Below are positions 2,273 to 20,512 of a DNA stretch of 57,637 nt, in pieces (within the stretch, counting starts at the first letter, position 1; every line of letters begins with the position of its first letter). The translations under genes and the position numbers were made by a program. The notes beneath the pieces are model-generated. The model had not been told where the DNA came from. It did no database searches and saw only the letters and a program-made list of their open reading frames with translations. The stretch is from a virus (Duplodnaviria; Caudoviricetes): positions 1-57,637 of the IMG/VR virus record IMGVR_UViG_3300030110_000139. The stretch is one strand, 5' to 3'.

Positions 2273-4089
2273 TAACTTGCTGCTAAGAAGTCATCTACCG
2301 CTTTGATTAATCCACCATTAGCCATGCCAATCACACCACCTTTTTTGGCTGAAACGACTGGTCTGGCTTGAGCACCCAATAGCTGCTCTATAAGTTTATT
2401 GAGGTCACCACTATCAAAGGTTACTGGCCTTATGTTTGATGATGCTGGTGCAAAAGGACTTGCAACAACAGTATCAGCAGTCACAGGCTGAAGGCTGCCT
2501 AATTGTCCACCTGTGCCACCAATAACATTAGGTGGTAAATCAGGCTTTGGCTCTTCAGGTTTAGGTGTTAGAGGTCTAATGATTGGAGTTGGCTCATTAT
2601 CGCTTGTGGCTCTATCTTGAATACTAAAATCCATACCCTCAATTAAATTGCCAAACCTATCTTTAGCACCCGTTATAGTGCCATCTCTATCAACAACGGG
2701 AATTAAGCCTCTCTCTGTAATGCCTCTCATAACTCTTTGATCAGTAATCTCGGCTAGTTTATTTAATCCTCTGCCTAAAAAGTTTGGTATATTTACACCA
2801 CCTATGTTTGTTGAGGGCTCAAAAATTCTTGACTTATCTTCTACAGACCTAGCGATTAAATCTCTGTCGGCAGCATCTTGTATATTTTTTATGTCTGTCT
2901 CTGTTAATCCAGAGGTTCCTAAACCACCAGATAAAGCTTTTTCAACAACTCCAGGCTTAACATCAAATGATACAAAAGGATCTGTAGTTTCCAGTTCATC
3001 ATCACGAGGATCTATGCTTGACGCAAAACCTATTCTCCCAAAAGAAGATGGTGCTTGATCCAACTCACTTTGACTATCAGGTATTAATCCTAGTTGATCA
3101 GGTCTTTCTGGCTTATCTAAATTCTCTGCAAGTGTGCCTTGCTCTAATGCTCTTTGTATATCTCTTGCTTGATTCCCTACATCAAAAGAAACAAATGGTC
3201 TGCTGGTGTCTGTTGGAGTAATGCCTGGATCAACAGTTCCTCTCATTATTTGATCTGTGTAAGCGGGCACACCTCTAACATCAAAAGGTGTCATGTCAAA
3301 AGCGTCTGCAACTGGCTTTGTTAAATCCACTGCGTCCATGACGTTCTTCTCACCTGTGCCTAAAATATCAGATGCAGTTGGTTGATTAAAGACTGCCCTA
3401 GAATAAGCAGCTGGATTTACGTTAGAGGCTTGGATAATACTATTGACAATATTCTCCCCTCTTTTATCACCATCTATCGCTGCAATTTGAAATTGATTTA
3501 AGGCACCAGCTAAATCATTGTCTTTAGCATAATCTTGCAAAGTCGCAATTGTGTCTTTTTTAAAAACTCTTTGTGCCTCGCTACCCTCTGGCAAATTTCT
3601 CGTGGCGTTTAAAATAGTTTGATTATTAAATGTTACGTTAGGAACAGATGGCGTGTCGTCACCGCCAGTTTGTCTGCCAATATCCGTTGCTTGTTGCAGT
3701 TCATCAGAACTAAAGACATCAGTATAGTCCATGTCACTATCTGGTGAAGAAGTGTCTATATTGTCATCTGAAAGATCAGACCTATCATCATCGGCAACGG
3801 AAGTTACTTCGTCAAAAAAGTCCCCAAAATCAGCAACCCCACCCTCTTGCATCATTTGTATGGGTTGATTGAATATGTCTATATTCGATAAAGCGGGTGC
3901 CATGTTTGGAGTCATAGCACCCATTGCTGGTGCCACGACTGGAGGATTAACTAATGTAGCACCATTCATGTTTTTTAAAAAATTATTAAAATTACCCCTG
4001 CTATCGGCAGTTGTATCTAATTTTACCTGCGGTGGTTGTGCAGGGGCAGCGGGGGTCGGCATAAACCCGCCCATAGGTCCATTTGCCAT
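2272..4089 (-). CDS. 605-aa acidic, Pro-rich hypothetical protein with xxxGG motifs; possible internal virion protein
   Basis: Long ORF, GGAG RBS, TAATG coupling to terL; MQEGG, AKKGG and MANGG motifs. Confidence 0.7.
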   Translation of the reverse strand: MANGPMGGFMPTPAAPAQPPQVKLDTTADSRGNFNNFLKNMNGATLVNPPVVAPAMGAMTPNMAPALSNIDIFNQPIQMMQEGGVADFGDFFDEVTSVADDDRSDLSDDNIDTSSPDSDMDYTDVFSSDELQQATDIGRQTGGDDTPSVPNVTFNNQTILNATRNLPEGSEAQRVFKKDTIATLQDYAKDNDLAGALNQFQIAAIDGDKRGENIVNSIIQASNVNPAAYSRAVFNQPTASDILGTGEKNVMDAVDLTKPVADAFDMTPFDVRGVPAYTDQIMRGTVDPGITPTDTSRPFVSFDVGNQARDIQRALEQGTLAENLDKPERPDQLGLIPDSQSELDQAPSSFGRIGFASSIDPRDDELETTDPFVSFDVKPGVVEKALSGGLGTSGLTETDIKNIQDAADRDLIARSVEDKSRIFEPSTNIGGVNIPNFLGRGLNKLAEITDQRVMRGITERGLIPVVDRDGTITGAKDRFGNLIEGMDFSIQDRATSDNEPTPIIRPLTPKPEEPKPDLPPNVIGGTGGQLGSLQPVTADTVVASPFAPASSNIRPVTFDSGDLNKLIEQLLGAQARPVVSAKKGGVIGMANGGLIKAVDDFLAAS

Positions 4090-11672: not shown

Positions 11673-12860
11673 TTATAAGTCAAATAATTTTAATTGTGGT
11701 TTAACATTTTTAATTCTTGCTTTGGCAATTTCATAATATTCGCTCTCTTTTTCTATTCCTATAAAGCTAAAATCTTCTTCTCTTGCACCCATACCTGTTG
11801 ACCCACTACCCATAAACGGATCAAGCACCACGCCTCCTTTTGGCGTTACCAAGCGAACAAGGTATCGCATCAGCTCAACAGGTTTAACTGTTGGGTGGGT
11901 GTTCGCCTTTATATCACCACCTAAACCAAACTTACGCTCATCTTTTGATGTCTTTGCACAATAAAAATACCTAGACGCATTACCCTGGTCTCCATATGCT
12001 GGCATAAATTGTTCGGTATCAGCAAGCTGACCAGCAGTCCAAATGCCCTTGTGTGTTCGCTCTCTGCTGACCTCCGTGCTGGAAGTTTCAGGAAATATTT
12101 CTTGTATTTGTTCGCTTCCATCGTGCATCACATTGCTTGGCCAACGACCTGTTTGATTATCAACTAAATCCGAATCCGATAGTTGTTTACGCTTGGCGTT
12201 AGATGTCTGACCGAATGATAGCTTGTCCACACCGATTGCAGCCTTACTTTGTTCGCCTTGATCACGGAAGTCTGGCATCGTATTTGGATGTTTGACCTCA
12301 CCCTCAATCCGACAAGCGTCAATGTTTATAGCACCAGTACCGAACTTGTCCATGTTGTCTGCTACCGACTTCTCCGACAAAGGCTTTCTTGCTAATACCA
12401 TTGGTTCATGTGCTGGTTTAAGAGCTGTACCCCAACCATTACCAATGTTATGGCTTTTGGGAAAACCACTACCATAAAGCCAAATACATTGATCACGGAT
12501 TTCAAATCCAGCATCTTCGATAGCAACTGCCATTCTGTGATATGTCCTAGAGCCACTAAACGCAATCATATGACCACCAGGTTTAAGAAGTTCATAACAT
12601 TTACGCCAAGTTTCTACTTGAAACGCTATGTCGCCACCATCCCACTCTTTGCCCATGAAGCCTTTGCTAGACCGAACAAACACGCCATCAGTCCCATGTT
12701 TTGCTGGTGCTGCATCTTCTTTACCGAACCTTTTAACTATTGATGTTAGATGGTACGGCGGATCTGTGACTATACTATCCACCGAACATTTCTCTATTTT
12801 GTCCATGACCTCTAAACAGTCGCCATGATAAACTGTGCTTCCCTCTACAATAATCTCCAT
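11673..12860 (-). CDS. DNA N6-adenine/N4-cytosine methyltransferase (beta class)
   Basis: TDPPY catalytic motif, HPTVKP, LDPFMGSGSTG SAM-binding motif. Confidence 0.92.
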   Translation of the reverse strand: MEIIVEGSTVYHGDCLEVMDKIEKCSVDSIVTDPPYHLTSIVKRFGKEDAAPAKHGTDGVFVRSSKGFMGKEWDGGDIAFQVETWRKCYELLKPGGHMIAFSGSRTYHRMAVAIEDAGFEIRDQCIWLYGSGFPKSHNIGNGWGTALKPAHEPMVLARKPLSEKSVADNMDKFGTGAINIDACRIEGEVKHPNTMPDFRDQGEQSKAAIGVDKLSFGQTSNAKRKQLSDSDLVDNQTGRWPSNVMHDGSEQIQEIFPETSSTEVSRERTHKGIWTAGQLADTEQFMPAYGDQGNASRYFYCAKTSKDERKFGLGGDIKANTHPTVKPVELMRYLVRLVTPKGGVVLDPFMGSGSTGMGAREEDFSFIGIEKESEYYEIAKARIKNVKPQLKLFDL

Positions 12861-12861
12861 A

Positions 12862-13548
12862 TTACCTCTCTAATAAACTTAATTGTTTTGTTTGTTTTTG
12901 TGTCCAACCTATTGGACATTGTATTGAATCTATTTCTCTTGCCATTTTTTCAGGACACCTATTGCTAGTCTTGTAATTCCTTGCAACATTAACAGAATCA
13001 GCAGAAGCAAACGGATAATGTTTACCAGACATATTCAGTCCTCTTAACATATGTATCCACGGCATAGTTTTAAATTTTTTATCTAGCTCATTAAATGCTT
13101 CATTAACTCGTTGTTCCCATGATGCAGAACCCACTTGCCAATACTCACCACTACTTCCAAAACAAACTTTGGGATATTCATTACATAAGTCAATTAAGTA
13201 ATCTAAACTTAAATGTAAGTGCCAAACAGGAACGCCATAACATTTAGAGTACGGCCACGTTTGTAAAAATTCTTTGTTTTCTTTCTCATCTCCACCAATT
13301 ATATCGGGTATAACTGCCCAATGTGGGTGTCCAAGCTTATCATCAAGCCAATTGTAATAAGCCTGGTGATTAAAAGTCTTCCCACTTGTAAATGTTGTAA
13401 AAGCACCATTATCCCACATTACGCTTTGACCTATTTGCAGACATATTTCAGCGTTTCTTGGATCAGCAAAGGAAACACAAAAGTGTTTCCCAGCCATTTT
13501 ATAAAGGTTCTCTTTAGGTGTAAGAGGTGTTCCATGATAATGTATCAT
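12862..13548 (-). CDS. TGT/DpdA-like transglycosylase-fold protein
   Basis: WDNGAF (compare TGT DSGGF), PDIIGG, VPVWH, IHMLRG, ASADS; gene context. Confidence 0.6.
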   Translation of the reverse strand: MIHYHGTPLTPKENLYKMAGKHFCVSFADPRNAEICLQIGQSVMWDNGAFTTFTSGKTFNHQAYYNWLDDKLGHPHWAVIPDIIGGDEKENKEFLQTWPYSKCYGVPVWHLHLSLDYLIDLCNEYPKVCFGSSGEYWQVGSASWEQRVNEAFNELDKKFKTMPWIHMLRGLNMSGKHYPFASADSVNVARNYKTSNRCPEKMAREIDSIQCPIGWTQKQTKQLSLLER

Positions 13549-16606: not shown

Positions 16607-16635
16607 AATATAGGTATTGGGCCGTTTAGTGTCAA
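16607..16635 (-). promoter_or_regulatory. Sigma70 promoter of the small RNA
   Basis: TTGACA-17 nt-TATATT. Confidence 0.75.
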
Positions 16636-16913
16636 GGCATATCATCAATAATACTTGAAGTATTAACATGAGTTGGGTTTCTTCGAACTCTACCAACATC
16701 ATTTTCTTTTAATGCTCTAGGATCATCTTCAAAGAAAGCTTCTTCTTCAACATAAACTGATGGCTTTAAACCATTCAAGTCTACTTTTTTTGGAGAAAAC
16801 TTATTAGCATCTGCTGCTTCACATTTATCGCATAATGGTTTTCTTTTATTTTTAACTTTATGTGCGAGTATTAATCTAGGACAAGCAGAACATCTTTCAT
16901 ACTTTGCTATCAT
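16632..16913 (-). CDS. Small zinc-finger-like hypothetical protein
   Basis: CSAC and CDKC pairs. Confidence 0.6.
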   Translation of the reverse strand: MIAKYERCSACPRLILAHKVKNKRKPLCDKCEAADANKFSPKKVDLNGLKPSVYVEEEAFFEDDPRALKENDVGRVRRNPTHVNTSSIIDDMP

Positions 16914-18342
16914 TATCTGCTTCCTTTATAGCATAAAATATTCGAGCTACCACTTGAGGCACGATGCTATTCCCTAAACATCTAAGTCGGTGTACCCTGT
17001 TGGATACCCCATGAGCCACTCTACCCACGTTGGGTTCAACGTCCCAGGTGATTGGTCTCTCACGGAAGGGTGGTTGCCTAACATCTTTTGCATCTTTCCA
17101 CCCGGTCTGCCCGCCGCATCTTCGTTTGCTGATGGTGTAGGGAACATCTCCTTTTTCTTGTTCTCCCAATAAACTTTTCTTGGCAGACTCATTCTTTGAC
17201 GATTCTCCTTCCAATTTTCCATGTTGCCCGAGTCCTTGTAATCCCTTGCTGTTGGTGTTGGAAACATCTCTCTCTTGGGATAATTCCATTTCTCCATTCT
17301 TGGTGGTCTGAGAGTGCAACCTAGCATCTGCTCTGCTTGTTGTTCGGTCATCTCCCCCGCCTCTACCTTCTTTCTGAAGATCATAGTCTGACCCATTGAT
17401 GCGTGTCCGTACCCCTTTGTTGTCGGTGTCGGCCACATTATCTCTTCCCTTACTCTTGGTGTTGGAAACATCTTCACTTCGTCCACTAATGTTATTGCAC
17501 TTGAGCCGTCTTTCTTCACTTTCTCGTAAAGCTCCTTGCTCTTCGGACCTTGCTTGGCATTCGCTGCTGTTGGTGTCCTCCACATCTTCACGCTGTCTGC
17601 TAAGTTCAGACTGTGACTGCTCTTCCCGTCTTTGCTCAACCTCCTGTTGTTCGGTGTCAACTCCACTTGTGGGTGCTCTATCTCCTGTGTTGTTGGTGTT
17701 GGCCATAAGGTCGAAGATGTCTGTTTGTACATATCCATTGTCTTGTTGTCCACTTGCTCCCTCAAGTTCGCTGGCTTTGTTCGTCCCTTGCGTTGACCCT
17801 CCATCAATTTGATTGTCCCCTCTTCTGAACGAGGTGGCAGATGATCCATTGTGTTCGGTGTGGCCCACAACCCAGCATCGCATTCGTCTATGTTTTGCAT
17901 CGACGGCTGCAGCTGGAATAAGATATGGGATGGCTTTGTATCCGATACTTTCCAGGTCAATGAGACTTCTTCTGAGGCCCATTGGCATTGTAACAAAGCC
18001 TGACACATTTTCGCCAATGACCCATTTAGGCCGTATGTCTTCAATAATCCTAACCATTTCGTGCCAGAGATCTCGGTCGTCTTCGCTTCCTCTCTGAGAG
18101 CCTGCGACACTCCAAGGTTGACATGGGAATCCTCCAACAACGATGTCTGCATCTTTGTATTCTTTTCCATTAAAACTCCTTATATCACTATATATTGGTA
18201 CATCGTGCCAATGTTTACGCAAGACTTTTTGACAATATTGATCTCTCTCAACAAAAGCTACTGTCTCAAAGCCACCTACTATTTGTTCTGCAGCATAACT
18301 AAATCCGCCTATGCCACTAAATAAATCTACTATCTTATACAT
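16897..18342 (-). CDS. C5-cytosine DNA methyltransferase, alpha chain (lacks motif IX)
   Basis: DLFSGIGG (I), GGFPCQ (IV), ENV (VI), HRRMR (VIII), LGNSIVP (X); long low-complexity middle. Confidence 0.9.
   Translation of the reverse strand: MYKIVDLFSGIGGFSYAAEQIVGGFETVAFVERDQYCQKVLRKHWHDVPIYSDIRSFNGKEYKDADIVVGGFPCQPWSVAGSQRGSEDDRDLWHEMVRIIEDIRPKWVIGENVSGFVTMPMGLRRSLIDLESIGYKAIPYLIPAAAVDAKHRRMRCWVVGHTEHNGSSATSFRRGDNQIDGGSTQGTNKASELEGASGQQDNGYVQTDIFDLMANTNNTGDRAPTSGVDTEQQEVEQRREEQSQSELSRQREDVEDTNSSECQARSEEQGALRESEERRLKCNNISGRSEDVSNTKSKGRDNVADTDNKGVRTRINGSDYDLQKEGRGGGDDRTTSRADARLHSQTTKNGEMELSQERDVSNTNSKGLQGLGQHGKLEGESSKNESAKKSLLGEQEKGDVPYTISKRRCGGQTGWKDAKDVRQPPFRERPITWDVEPNVGRVAHGVSNRVHRLRCLGNSIVPQVVARIFYAIKEADNDSKV
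16974..18170 (-). CDS. Nested alternative-frame methyltransferase beta chain with seven (W/F)xTP repeats and a motif IX-like C-terminus
   Basis: 398-codon open frame, internal AGGAG RBS 6 nt before ATG, LNPTWVEWLMGYP. Confidence 0.75.
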   Translation of the reverse strand: MEKNTKMQTSLLEDSHVNLGVSQALREEAKTTEISGTKWLGLLKTYGLNGSLAKMCQALLQCQWASEEVSLTWKVSDTKPSHILFQLQPSMQNIDECDAGLWATPNTMDHLPPRSEEGTIKLMEGQRKGRTKPANLREQVDNKTMDMYKQTSSTLWPTPTTQEIEHPQVELTPNNRRLSKDGKSSHSLNLADSVKMWRTPTAANAKQGPKSKELYEKVKKDGSSAITLVDEVKMFPTPRVREEIMWPTPTTKGYGHASMGQTMIFRKKVEAGEMTEQQAEQMLGCTLRPPRMEKWNYPKREMFPTPTARDYKDSGNMENWKENRQRMSLPRKVYWENKKKEMFPTPSANEDAAGRPGGKMQKMLGNHPSVRDQSPGTLNPTWVEWLMGYPTGYTDLDV

Positions 18343-20512
18343 TGTCTCTCGCTGTAGTCGCCTCGTATTCACCTCTGCTCATTGCACCATCTATAGTGCC
18401 AAGCCATTTCCTACCACCACTTGTGCTAAATGAATACTTTGCAAGTCTACCCTCTTGTATAAGTTCTCTGACAAGACCATCAATCATTCTTTGTGTGCAA
18501 TTGTTTAATACTCGTGGTGCATCAGTATCAGCAGACATACGTTGCGTTATAGCATCTGCACCAGACTGTTGTGTCATAGCTCTGCCTTCTCTTTCACAAT
18601 CTGCAATCCAATTAAATAATGCGGTCTTTTTAATCTCTTTATTTGTACCACTATGCAGTCTTGAGATATCATCACTCTTATCAATCAATAAGCCACTATA
18701 TTCATCTCTAATAAAATGTCTTATGTTTCTGTTTGCAGGTCCATTAGACTTTACTACTGCACCATCAAAGCATTTGTTTCGTTTGTATTCTATTCCTAAA
18801 TCTTGACATCTTCTGCGTCCATTAGCCTCATCTACTTGCCATAATGCAAAAGCACAACGAACACCATCTACCAATGCAGACGTACCTCTAATCATATTTC
18901 TTGCTTGTTCAGGTGTATTTACAACTAAATCTTCTTTAACTTTAGTCATGTGGTGACACATAATAACAGACGCACCGGTTTCTGTAGCTATCTGTGCCAA
19001 TAGTCCAGTTAATGCTGCACCTGCTGCAGGGTCTGAGTTTACATCTGCATGAACAAATGAAGCTAACGGATCAAAGACAATTAGTTTTAAATTTTTCATC
19101 TGTAGTATTTGCTCATAAATTTTATCAAATTCATCGCTTGTTCTGTATCCATCATGTGTTTCTTGTAATATTGGAAATACACCACCAACATTAGGTAAAC
19201 TTACAATTCGTAACTCATGATCATATTCAATTCTACTGCCACTAGCATCAAGTCTTTCAATACGTCTGTGCATCTCTGCTTCGTCATCTTCTGCTGTAAA
19301 TATAATAGAATTACCAAACTCACTAATCATGCCACCAAAAGATTCTTGCATTGACTGACCACTTGATACTTTCATAGCTAAGTCAAGTGTCATCATGCCT
19401 TTACCACTATCACCTGCAGCAGAGAATATTATAGGCACTGCTAAAGGTAATGTGTTTGCTATCAAAAACTTTTGCTCTGGTGCTTGTCCTACAAATCTAT
19501 TAATGAGCATACTGTCATCAAGAAGATTAATATTCTTTTTAACTTGCTTTACATTGGTGTTAAGAAACTCGTTAATGTTAAATTGCTCTGCTATCGCATC
19601 AACAACATCCCATCTTTCAGGCTTACCTCTTGGTGGCGTTAATGTGGTTACTGATTTGACACCAGCGTTTAATGCAAGTTCTTGTACTAGCTCTGCAACT
19701 TTACGACCAGCTGTGTCATTATCTGGCCAAATCACAAGTTCTTTCTCATGTAATGGAGAAAAGTCAAATAAGTTTGCAGACTTTCTTGACAACATACCCG
19801 CACCACCCATAGTACAAGTTGTTGTATAACCTAAGTCATTTAAGGCATCTGCACACTTTTCACCCTCAACCCATATAATTTTTTCAGAGGCTATAATGTT
19901 TGGTATGTTGTATAGTGGGCGAACATCAGGCATACGAGGATAATTACTGCCACCTGTAAACTGTCTAAATTCTTTCTTTGGTTTGCCGTGTGAATCAAGT
20001 ATTGGATTTCCATCTTGATCTATATCGTTGTATCTTCTAACAAGACAAAGTAATTCACCTTGAGCATTTAAATATCTGTGTTCGCTATCATATGGTGTAT
20101 TAATGTTTATTTGTTTAGCTTCAGGTTTAATAATTGAACTTATGCTTTCTATTGGTTGTGGTGCTTCGTTATCCAAATATGAATCAAACAACTCTTTAAC
20201 TTCTGGTAACTTCATGTTTCTACCTTCCATCAAAATTTTAACGATACCACCCACTCCATCTGCACCATTAAAATCTTGCCCTTTCATAAAATAAGGAGAC
20301 CTTGGATTTATATCAATTTTTAAAGACTTTCCAGCTTCGCCATGTAACGAGCCTATTGTAAATTGATCTCCTCTAATTACACCTTGAGGATAGGTTTCTC
20401 TTAACATATCAATTTGTACACTCGCTGGGACTTTTTGACTTATCATTTCAACAAGTTCTTTGGAATCCATACTGCGTTTATTATTGCCAAATTTAATAAT
20501 GTTCATTACCAT
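18335..20512 (-). CDS. Primase-helicase (Toprim domain + RecA-like AAA_25 helicase)
   Basis: WVEGEKCAD and WPDND Toprim motifs; GDSGKG Walker A, IVFDP Walker B, CHH. Confidence 0.88.
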   Translation of the reverse strand: MVMNIIKFGNNKRSMDSKELVEMISQKVPASVQIDMLRETYPQGVIRGDQFTIGSLHGEAGKSLKIDINPRSPYFMKGQDFNGADGVGGIVKILMEGRNMKLPEVKELFDSYLDNEAPQPIESISSIIKPEAKQININTPYDSEHRYLNAQGELLCLVRRYNDIDQDGNPILDSHGKPKKEFRQFTGGSNYPRMPDVRPLYNIPNIIASEKIIWVEGEKCADALNDLGYTTTCTMGGAGMLSRKSANLFDFSPLHEKELVIWPDNDTAGRKVAELVQELALNAGVKSVTTLTPPRGKPERWDVVDAIAEQFNINEFLNTNVKQVKKNINLLDDSMLINRFVGQAPEQKFLIANTLPLAVPIIFSAAGDSGKGMMTLDLAMKVSSGQSMQESFGGMISEFGNSIIFTAEDDEAEMHRRIERLDASGSRIEYDHELRIVSLPNVGGVFPILQETHDGYRTSDEFDKIYEQILQMKNLKLIVFDPLASFVHADVNSDPAAGAALTGLLAQIATETGASVIMCHHMTKVKEDLVVNTPEQARNMIRGTSALVDGVRCAFALWQVDEANGRRRCQDLGIEYKRNKCFDGAVVKSNGPANRNIRHFIRDEYSGLLIDKSDDISRLHSGTNKEIKKTALFNWIADCEREGRAMTQQSGADAITQRMSADTDAPRVLNNCTQRMIDGLVRELIQEGRLAKYSFSTSGGRKWLGTIDGAMSRGEYEATTARDNV

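Follow-up and report, generated by a model that had tools for sequence, protein, structure and literature searches.

The window analysed here, the complete 57,637-base record of a tailed phage (IMGVR_UViG_3300030110_000139), carries on its minus strand a C5 cytosine methyltransferase gene within which a second open reading frame (ORF) of 398 amino acids (aa) is nested in the +1 frame. We refer to these as the outer ORF, encoding the alpha chain, and the inner ORF, encoding the beta chain, and argue below that the two products probably form a single enzyme. An initial annotation made from the sequence had reported two frames remaining open over about 1.2 kb, and this was upheld: the ORFs at 16897-18342 and 16974-18170 (both minus strand) contain zero stops, versus 29-30 stops in the third same-strand frame over the shared span. 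Their features are listed here, with residues numbered along each chain and invariant positions taken from 45 sequences of the chain in question.

16897..18342, minus strand: outer ORF (alpha), catalytic half of a C5 cytosine methyltransferase, 481 aa from a probable ATG at 18342
18304..18321, minus strand: outer motif I, FSGIGG, residues 8-13; G10 and G13 invariant
18109..18132, minus strand: outer motif IV, GFPCQPWS, residues 71-78, with the catalytic Cys74; G71, P73, C74, Q75, P76 and S78 invariant
18004..18012, minus strand: outer motif VI, ENV, residues 111-113; E111, N112 and V113 invariant
17878..17892, minus strand: outer motif VIII, HRRMR, residues 151-155; H151, R153 and R155 invariant
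17032..17826, minus strand: outer-frame filler, residues about 173-437 (~265 aa); hydrophilic, predicted disordered, unconserved as protein, stop-free
16957..17010, minus strand: outer motif X region, G445...LGN456-458...P462; G445, R449, R452, L456, G457, N458 and P462 invariant
18176..18181, minus strand: Shine-Dalgarno sequence AAGGAG, 5 nucleotides (nt) 5' of the inner ATG (18170-18168) and inside the outer D-I-R-S codons
16974..18170, minus strand: nested inner ORF (beta), 398 aa, in the +1 frame of the outer ORF
17871..18170, minus strand: inner N-terminal region, residues 1-100, helix-helix-beta-hairpin; overlaps outer motifs IV-VIII; proposed dock
17046..17870, minus strand: seven xPTP modules, inner residues 101-375, starting at W102, W156, W197, F235, W246, F303 and F343
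16977..17045, minus strand: inner C-terminus, motif IX-like (GTLNPTWVEWLMGYPTGYTDLDV), the conserved end of the inner protein

The outer frame is open further 5', from a GTG at 18372 (ORF 16897..18372, minus strand), and the inner start lies 202 nt downstream of that GTG. The outer chain matches Pfam PF00145 (E 9.5e-49) and TIGR00675 (E 1.3e-42, over its cut-off), and the motifs I-VIII and X separated by low-complexity filler that the initial annotation had read in this frame are present at the residue level. The motifs expected of a C5 methyltransferase (I, IV, VI and VIII) are thus all found on a single chain. A model generated with AlphaFold2 (AF2) from an alignment of 45 sequences is confident over residues 1-170, falls below a predicted local distance difference test (pLDDT) score of 50 across most of residues 173-437, and regains helices at residues 442-480, with block means over residues 431-480 of 44, 61, 63, 87 and 82. 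Compared to M.HhaI (2i9k_A), this model (range 1-481) yielded a Z of 24.5 and a root-mean-square deviation of 2.6 Å with 206 of 327 residues aligned, about the size of the M.HhaI large domain, and it has the large-domain fold with the motif X helix packed back. Neither a target recognition domain (TRD) nor motif IX was found on this chain in the stretch from motif VIII to motif X, and the IX-like sequence is instead in the +1 frame. As modelled, the outer protein consists of an M.HhaI-type large domain and a disordered, unconserved filler.

The inner ORF has the ribosome binding site of its own that was initially noted, AAGGAG at 18181-18176, five bases before the ATG, which is itself 44 nt ahead of the codon for the PCQ of outer motif IV. 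This site is identical or near-identical in the related loci L005-L013, and in a lenient scan 38 of 55 loci had a Shine-Dalgarno-like site and a start at a distance of 41-68 nt upstream of the codon for PCQ. The bases of outer motif IV also encode inner D-S-H-V-N-L-G, and the outer motif X region shares part of its bases with inner motif IX. The inner N-terminal region is predicted with a pLDDT of 62-75 over residues 21-90, and S35, G36 and W73 are invariant in it. The inner protein ends in LNPTWVEWLMGYPTGYTDLDV (also written LNPTWVEWLMGYP), where G376, N379, P380, V383, E384, M387 and P390 are invariant in 45 inner sequences. The resemblance to motif IX that had been proposed for this end holds, the name itself coming from position and the consensus of the motif. 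The inner chain retrieved zero Pfam or NCBIfam family matches. It did match phrog_1008 ('DNA methyltransferase', E 1.4e-33; residues 3-241 against profile positions 34-205 of 329), a family absent from 14 of 14 control genomes.

Coding and selection in the two frames

To maintain two open frames over 1.2 kb exceeds chance. When the inner protein was held fixed and its synonymous codons were permuted, the outer frame acquired a mean of 14.2 stops, and when the outer protein was held fixed, the inner frame acquired a mean of 10.0; a stop-free frame resulted in 0 of 5000 permutations in either case. The guanine plus cytosine (GC) content is 0.488 at 17001-18000 versus about 0.33-0.39 in the neighbouring kilobases, the AT skew is -0.375, and this compositional island marks the doubly coding stretch. 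The shared span is poor in T (204 T in 1197 bases), and low T together with raised GC is the expected product of stop avoidance in two frames. In relatives, the third frame contains 23-36 stops. At most 2 of 200 shuffles were stop-free for the outer frame in all 54 nested loci (54/54) and for the inner frame in 45 of 54, L020 being invalid for the inner count; because these loci were picked as nested, the 54-locus stop figures describe the layout rather than test it, and the 75 of 81 loci given below is the fairer figure.

Substitutions were compared by codon position between the window and six close relatives, with the following outcome for the three parts of the inner protein.

Inner residues 2-100 (over outer motifs IV-VIII): change peaks at inner position 2, which is the outer wobble position (0.22, 0.11 per site); outer aa identity 0.94-0.95, inner 0.77-0.88
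Inner residues 101-375 (modules): change peaks at inner position 3 (0.24-0.27 versus 0.02-0.13 at positions 1 and 2); outer aa identity 0.67-0.74, inner 0.84-0.94
Inner residues 376-398 (motif IX): both frames conserved; outer aa identity 0.88, inner 0.95

The peak in the module region corresponds to outer codon position 1, and the non-overlapping ends of the outer gene evolve like ordinary coding sequence. From these peaks it follows that the selected frame passes from outer to inner right after motif VIII and returns to the outer frame at motif X. The comparison of selection per frame that the initial annotation had suggested came out in favour of both frames, the inner being selected over the modules and motif IX and the outer over motifs I-VIII and X. 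Judged from these alignments, both frames are conserved and selected, with the hand-over at the motif VIII and motif X boundaries. In 46 of 54 loci, the real sequence scored higher against a hidden Markov model (HMM) of the inner N-terminal region than any of 100 shuffles of the outer gene with synonymous codons. The shuffled outer genes still average 11-69 bits, so part of the inner N-terminal conservation is a by-product.

Spread of the layout and variation of the modules

A tblastn search with the inner protein against 50,697 phage records matched 58, of which 48 are Paenibacillus phages, the remaining records including Lacticaseibacillus phages, C72C1 and C75C1. The matching frame in Bloom, R9.1, C75C1 and C72C1 is likewise +1 to the annotated methyltransferase gene, and the nested ORFs there end ...LNPxWVE(W/C/Q)LMG(Y/F/L)PxGWT; in Paenibacillus phage Bloom both coding sequences (CDSs) are annotated, at the same 202-nt offset. 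Inner-frame stops in close relatives, which the initial annotation had named as telling against its interpretation, were sought among the nine viral-contig relatives, and both frames are open in 8 of the 8 with enough sequence.

A scan of prokaryotes (one genome per species) confirmed 149 relatives among 172 pattern matches, and 80 loci were retained; the hosts belong to Bacillota, Bacteroidota, Pseudomonadota, Spirochaetota, Saccharibacteria and others. Four small HMMs (outer N-terminus, outer X, inner N-terminus and inner IX) were mapped on 94 loci, and the 81 in which the outer N-terminal, inner IX and outer X parts are present make up the informative set. The strictly nested +1 layout was found in 69 of these, and in 6 more the inner stop lies 10-13 nt beyond the outer stop, giving a nested layout in 75 of 81. 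The 6 of 81 that depart from it are L029, L044, L051, L057, L058 and L091. L044 has an in-frame outer stop at 3058-3060, motif IX is in another frame in L029 and L051, and in L057 it is in a second, downstream ORF. In L058 (2251-3439) and L091 (1501-3406), the outer frame ends soon after motif VIII and the inner-type chain holds both IX and X.

The same joining is seen in the proteins P0043, P0089 and P0030, in which IX, about 25 residues, the usual lead-in and motif X follow one another on one chain at normal spacing. The occurrence of IX and X together on the inner-type chain of relatives shows this type of chain to be a methyltransferase's C-terminal half. Among the 69 strictly nested loci, IX ends ahead of the X region in 18, and IX and the X region share bases in 51. 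Fused single-chain forms were looked for among the best 120 of 3091 inner-protein matches, where PF00145 is present in six (P0017, P0058, P0070, P0080, P0091 and P0107), and all six were rejected as frame-switch chimeras. These proteins start in the outer frame and switch to the inner one at differing points, P0070 switching back, and they are without PCQ, ENV, VIII or X, the essential motifs; they are probably assembly errors or broken genes.

The family of the inner protein is large. The 3091 homologues were obtained among 5334 candidates with shared short words, and a profile search retrieved 44,647 representative clusters at E<=1e-3, of which 30,715 remained at E<=1e-10 and 4,622 at E<=1e-30. 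Members, where named, are called 'hypothetical protein' or bear a methyltransferase name, and the closest ESM Atlas clusters are unnamed and mainly viral. The inner-frame protein also occurs in the plasmid and megaplasmid records H47-H67, from the Bacillus cereus group, Paenibacillus, Ralstonia and others (for example NC_018502.1, Bacillus thuringiensis), and in 16 of 21 of these records the RefSeq and PLSDB plasmid tables have only the outer gene ('dcm' or 'DNA cytosine methyltransferase') under the match. When a small member of the family was used as the blastn query, no match was obtained in 5,426 E. coli genomes.

The seven repeats initially listed are present exactly in the inner protein, as LWATP, LWPTP, MWRTP, MFPTP, MWPTP, MFPTP and MFPTP at residues 102, 156, 197, 235, 246, 303 and 343, respectively. 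Each module is laid out as (W/F/Y)-P-T-P, a variable loop and then L-x-x-x-V-x-M. The F235 module of the window is a remnant of 11 aa (FPTPRVREEIM) at a place where the module of relatives has 38 aa; further along its array, the window has an extra module. Whole modules are gained, lost and swapped across the 7 close relatives, as the initial annotation had anticipated for recognition-like units in the overlapping frame: L007 has one additional module, L011 has one type exchanged for another, and L009 has a different set. The module start P-T-P-T-A-x-D-x-K is reminiscent of the T-L recognition loop in ordinary enzymes, a likeness that no tool recovered.

We divided 333 inner-type proteins into 1412 modules of 270 types (164 of them singletons) in 289 distinct module strings, counts that are biased in that the sampled proteins are the best matches to the inner protein of the window. 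Types were defined by clustering at 50% identity and 80% coverage, single-linkage clustering at E<=1e-4 having been discarded because 1206 of the 1412 modules fell in one group. The module string of the window is T0-T2-T7-(remnant)-T3-T1-T4. T0 leads in 184 of its 234 occurrences, and T4 is found at positions 3-7 and never in the first two; given these preferences, at least two module types look like constant framework and not like specificity units. We would also like to note that xPTP modules stand downstream of motif IX in P0101, P0060 and P0092, and upstream of the conserved N-terminal region in P0134, P0240 and P0176.

A probable two-chain enzyme and its rivals

We consider it likely that this one stretch of DNA encodes two proteins jointly forming one C5 cytosine DNA methyltransferase. 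Alpha, with motifs I-VIII and X, would be the whole catalytic large domain, and its disordered filler of about 265 residues would replace the small domain of ordinary enzymes; the sequence of the filler would be set by the other frame, its sole job being to stay stop-free so that translation gets to motif X. Beta would be translated from its own AAGGAG-ATG, dock onto alpha through its conserved N-terminus of about 100 aa, offer its xPTP...LxxxV modules as DNA-recognition elements, and bring motif IX, standing in for the missing small domain of alpha as in M.EcoHK31I. Both the alpha-beta binding and the recognition of DNA by the modules are inferred. With two chains, one can account for a filler that stays open, for the internal start, for the conservation of the inner N-terminus and for the split variants. 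That the enzyme has more than one specificity, as the initial annotation had proposed, is a possibility that we hold slightly less likely than not.

Several results weigh against a two-chain enzyme. Translation of either frame is deduced here indirectly, from the sequence. PF00145 finds no motif IX in the inner chain, which is why the label of the inner C-terminus rests on position, conservation and the motif consensus, and a Pfam scan of the chains carrying IX and X (P0043, P0089, P0030, L058 and L091) likewise gave no PF00145 match. The AF2 monomer of the inner chain is a poor fold, with a mean pLDDT of 60.3 and a predicted template modelling score of 0.27; in it, the N-terminus is helix-helix-hairpin, the modules contain short helices and the chain closes with another helix. 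A Foldseek search of this model against the PDB returned nothing at E<=0.001, and a wide VIA-align comparison reached a best Z of 6.3, to generic helical hairpins and over residues 13-69 only. Searches of PDB sequences with the inner profile and with the module profile gave 0 matches each at E<=10. Outer synonymous change is not lowered over the inner N-terminal overlap in the close relatives (0.14 versus 0.11 per site), which weighs against strong constraint on the inner N-terminus in that set; inner residues 1-30 are weakly conserved (identity 0.77), and the inner N-terminal HMM fails to beat the shuffles in 8 of 54 loci. Lastly, the hand-over of codon periodicity is equally expected from a double frameshift giving a single chain. 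A PDB sequence search with P0043 yielded a single match, at chance level.

Such a double frameshift, +1 after motif VIII and -1 after motif IX, would be programmed and would bring back the canonical order of I-VIII, TRD, IX and X on a single polypeptide. It would place the hand-over of codon-position selection at exactly both boundaries, where it is observed, and the metagenome proteins P0017, P0058, P0080 and P0107 do switch from the outer to the inner frame. However, in the chimeric database proteins the change of frame falls at four different points and essential motifs are lacking, and a frameshifted chain leaves unexplained both the approximately 265 stop-free filler codons and the openness of the inner frame for 100 codons upstream of the boundary. 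It accounts for neither the conserved internal Shine-Dalgarno sequence and ATG nor the extra conservation of the inner N-terminus. Moreover, since IX and the pre-X segment share bases in 51 of 69 strictly nested loci, a frameshifted chain would there lose the conserved R-x-x-R-L-x-x-LGN lead-in. We regard this explanation as highly improbable.

The inner ORF could also encode a real protein that is not a methyltransferase subunit, for example an overprinted DNA-binding or anti-defence protein, with the outer chain acting alone. The outer chain does keep all catalytic motifs, and the inner chain is without a sequence or fold match to solved methyltransferase small domains. Nevertheless, the outer chain has no ordered or conserved segment at the place of the small domain and motif IX, the end motif of the inner chain directly precedes motif X on P0043-type chains, outer and inner parts occur together in 75 of 81 loci, and, according to PMC2836561, M.EcoHK31I alpha is inactive without beta. 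These points make an independent inner protein unlikely in our estimation. An untranslated inner frame, which would owe its openness and apparent conservation to a composition rich in purines and to the outer gene being conserved, would agree with the region being poor in T and with the 11-69 bits that shuffled outer genes still average on the inner N-terminal HMM. It is hard to reconcile with module substitutions that track the inner and not the outer frame, with the 23-36 stops in the third same-strand frame, with an inner frame left open by 0 of 5000 permutations, or with an inner family of 30,715 representative clusters at E<=1e-10, and we give it next to no weight. Both the independent protein and the untranslated frame fit worse still than the double frameshift.

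The methyltransferase locus is placed in a genome with terminase, portal, tape-measure and tail-fibre genes and a replication block, between a primase/helicase gene (18335-20512) and a small Cys-rich ORF. The latter is of 93 aa with CxxC...CxxC (16632-16913, minus strand); its first 17 nt are shared with the end of the outer methyltransferase ORF, and no PHROG family matched it. At 11673-12860 (minus strand) there is another DNA methyltransferase gene (phrog_67, E 1.7e-75), so that the phage carries at least two methyltransferases. Next to it, at 12862-13548 (minus strand), is a queuine tRNA-ribosyltransferase-like gene (phrog_887, E 2.2e-44). DpdA-like phage genes of the queuine tRNA-ribosyltransferase type put 7-deazaguanines into DNA, and this gene would be a further anti-restriction DNA modification beside the methyltransferases. 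Of the 42 ORFs in the window with 150 aa or more, 15 were scanned, the flanking replication genes included, and no restriction enzyme was found among these 15. Because of this and because modules are shuffled between relatives, the role of the two-chain enzyme is likely to be orphan anti-restriction methylation with a target set that shifts through module exchange.

For a gene nested on the same strand in a phage, the inner ORF is very long at 1197 nt, and both frames have clear, differing selection signatures. The locus therefore lends itself well, as a natural example, to work on the sharing of one sequence by two proteins and on the tolerance of a disordered linker dictated by another frame. 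The findings suggest that many phage and prophage 'dcm' genes are half an enzyme only. If target specificity is set by the modules, phages would have in this family a cassette system with which to escape restriction, and the family would also be a source of natural split methyltransferases for targeted methylation.

Comparison with known methyltransferases

That a beta chain bearing motif IX can be nested is known from the earlier case of M.EcoHK31I. No description of a nested recognition subunit as a family trait was found in the literature searched, with subscription journals outside its coverage, and within that same literature we did not find in print a whole variable region nested as a shuffled module array, an outer variable region serving as a mere tether, or the layout as a family trait across phyla. 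The phrog_1008 CDS pairs of Paenibacillus larvae phages (for example BLOOM_56 and BLOOM_57) share the family, the nesting and the 202-nt offset with our locus, the inner protein having 398 aa and seven modules in the window versus 234 aa and three modules in the P. larvae phage pair. Two P. larvae phage papers list both gene products, without remark on nesting in the portions available.

The modules of the window, tandem and exchanged between relatives, are also like those of multispecific Bacillus-phage enzymes, but here the array is on a separate nested chain, whereas those enzymes are single polypeptides. SPR, phi3T and rho11s are such single-polypeptide, multispecific orphan C5 methyltransferases of Bacillus phages, with tandem recognition units in the variable region. 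No Bacillus phage is among the 58 phage records matched by the inner-protein tblastn, which is an indirect test of a sequence link.

M.AquI is a natural two-chain C5 methyltransferase in which, according to PMC3404938, alpha has I-VIII together with a portion of the variable region while beta has the rest and IX-X. The relatives L058, L091, P0043, P0089 and P0030 resemble it in carrying IX and X on the inner-type chain. The window does not, in that its motif X is on alpha and its beta is fully nested.

The closest precedent, which the initial annotation had described in agreement with PMC2836561 and PMC3404938, is M.EcoHK31I (E. coli HK31, target YGGCCR). According to these papers, its beta lies wholly inside the alpha gene in another frame, both chains are needed for activity, and activity is lost when the beta starts are removed by changes that are silent in alpha; the dissociation constant rises when beta is truncated at its N-terminus, alpha-beta binding being weakened (PMC2836561). 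The beta ORF of the window is likewise wholly within the alpha ORF, in another frame and with an IX-like end. M.EcoHK31I belongs to a restriction-modification system, whereas the window is without a restriction enzyme among the scanned ORFs. A second difference concerns the TRD, which in the published account is on alpha, with beta giving motif IX only; in the window, disordered filler without conservation takes up the variable region of alpha, and the variable array is entirely on beta. The initial interpretation stood as to both frames coding, the catalytic half in the outer frame, and the IX-like end and modular array in the inner one. The plasmid names M38/C23 hint at M.EcoHK31I chains of 38 and 23 kDa, near small family members (275-351 and 191-234 aa), although this is only a lead. 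We tentatively raise, as an idea we think more apt to fail than to hold, that the locus belongs to a very large, unnamed family of two-chain methyltransferases (at least 30,000 clusters at 50% identity), in which the whole recognition half would be overprinted in the +1 frame, the catalytic chain would keep only a frame-dictated disordered tether, targets would evolve by exchange of xPTP cassettes, and M.EcoHK31I would be the minimal member, with its TRD assigned to the wrong chain.

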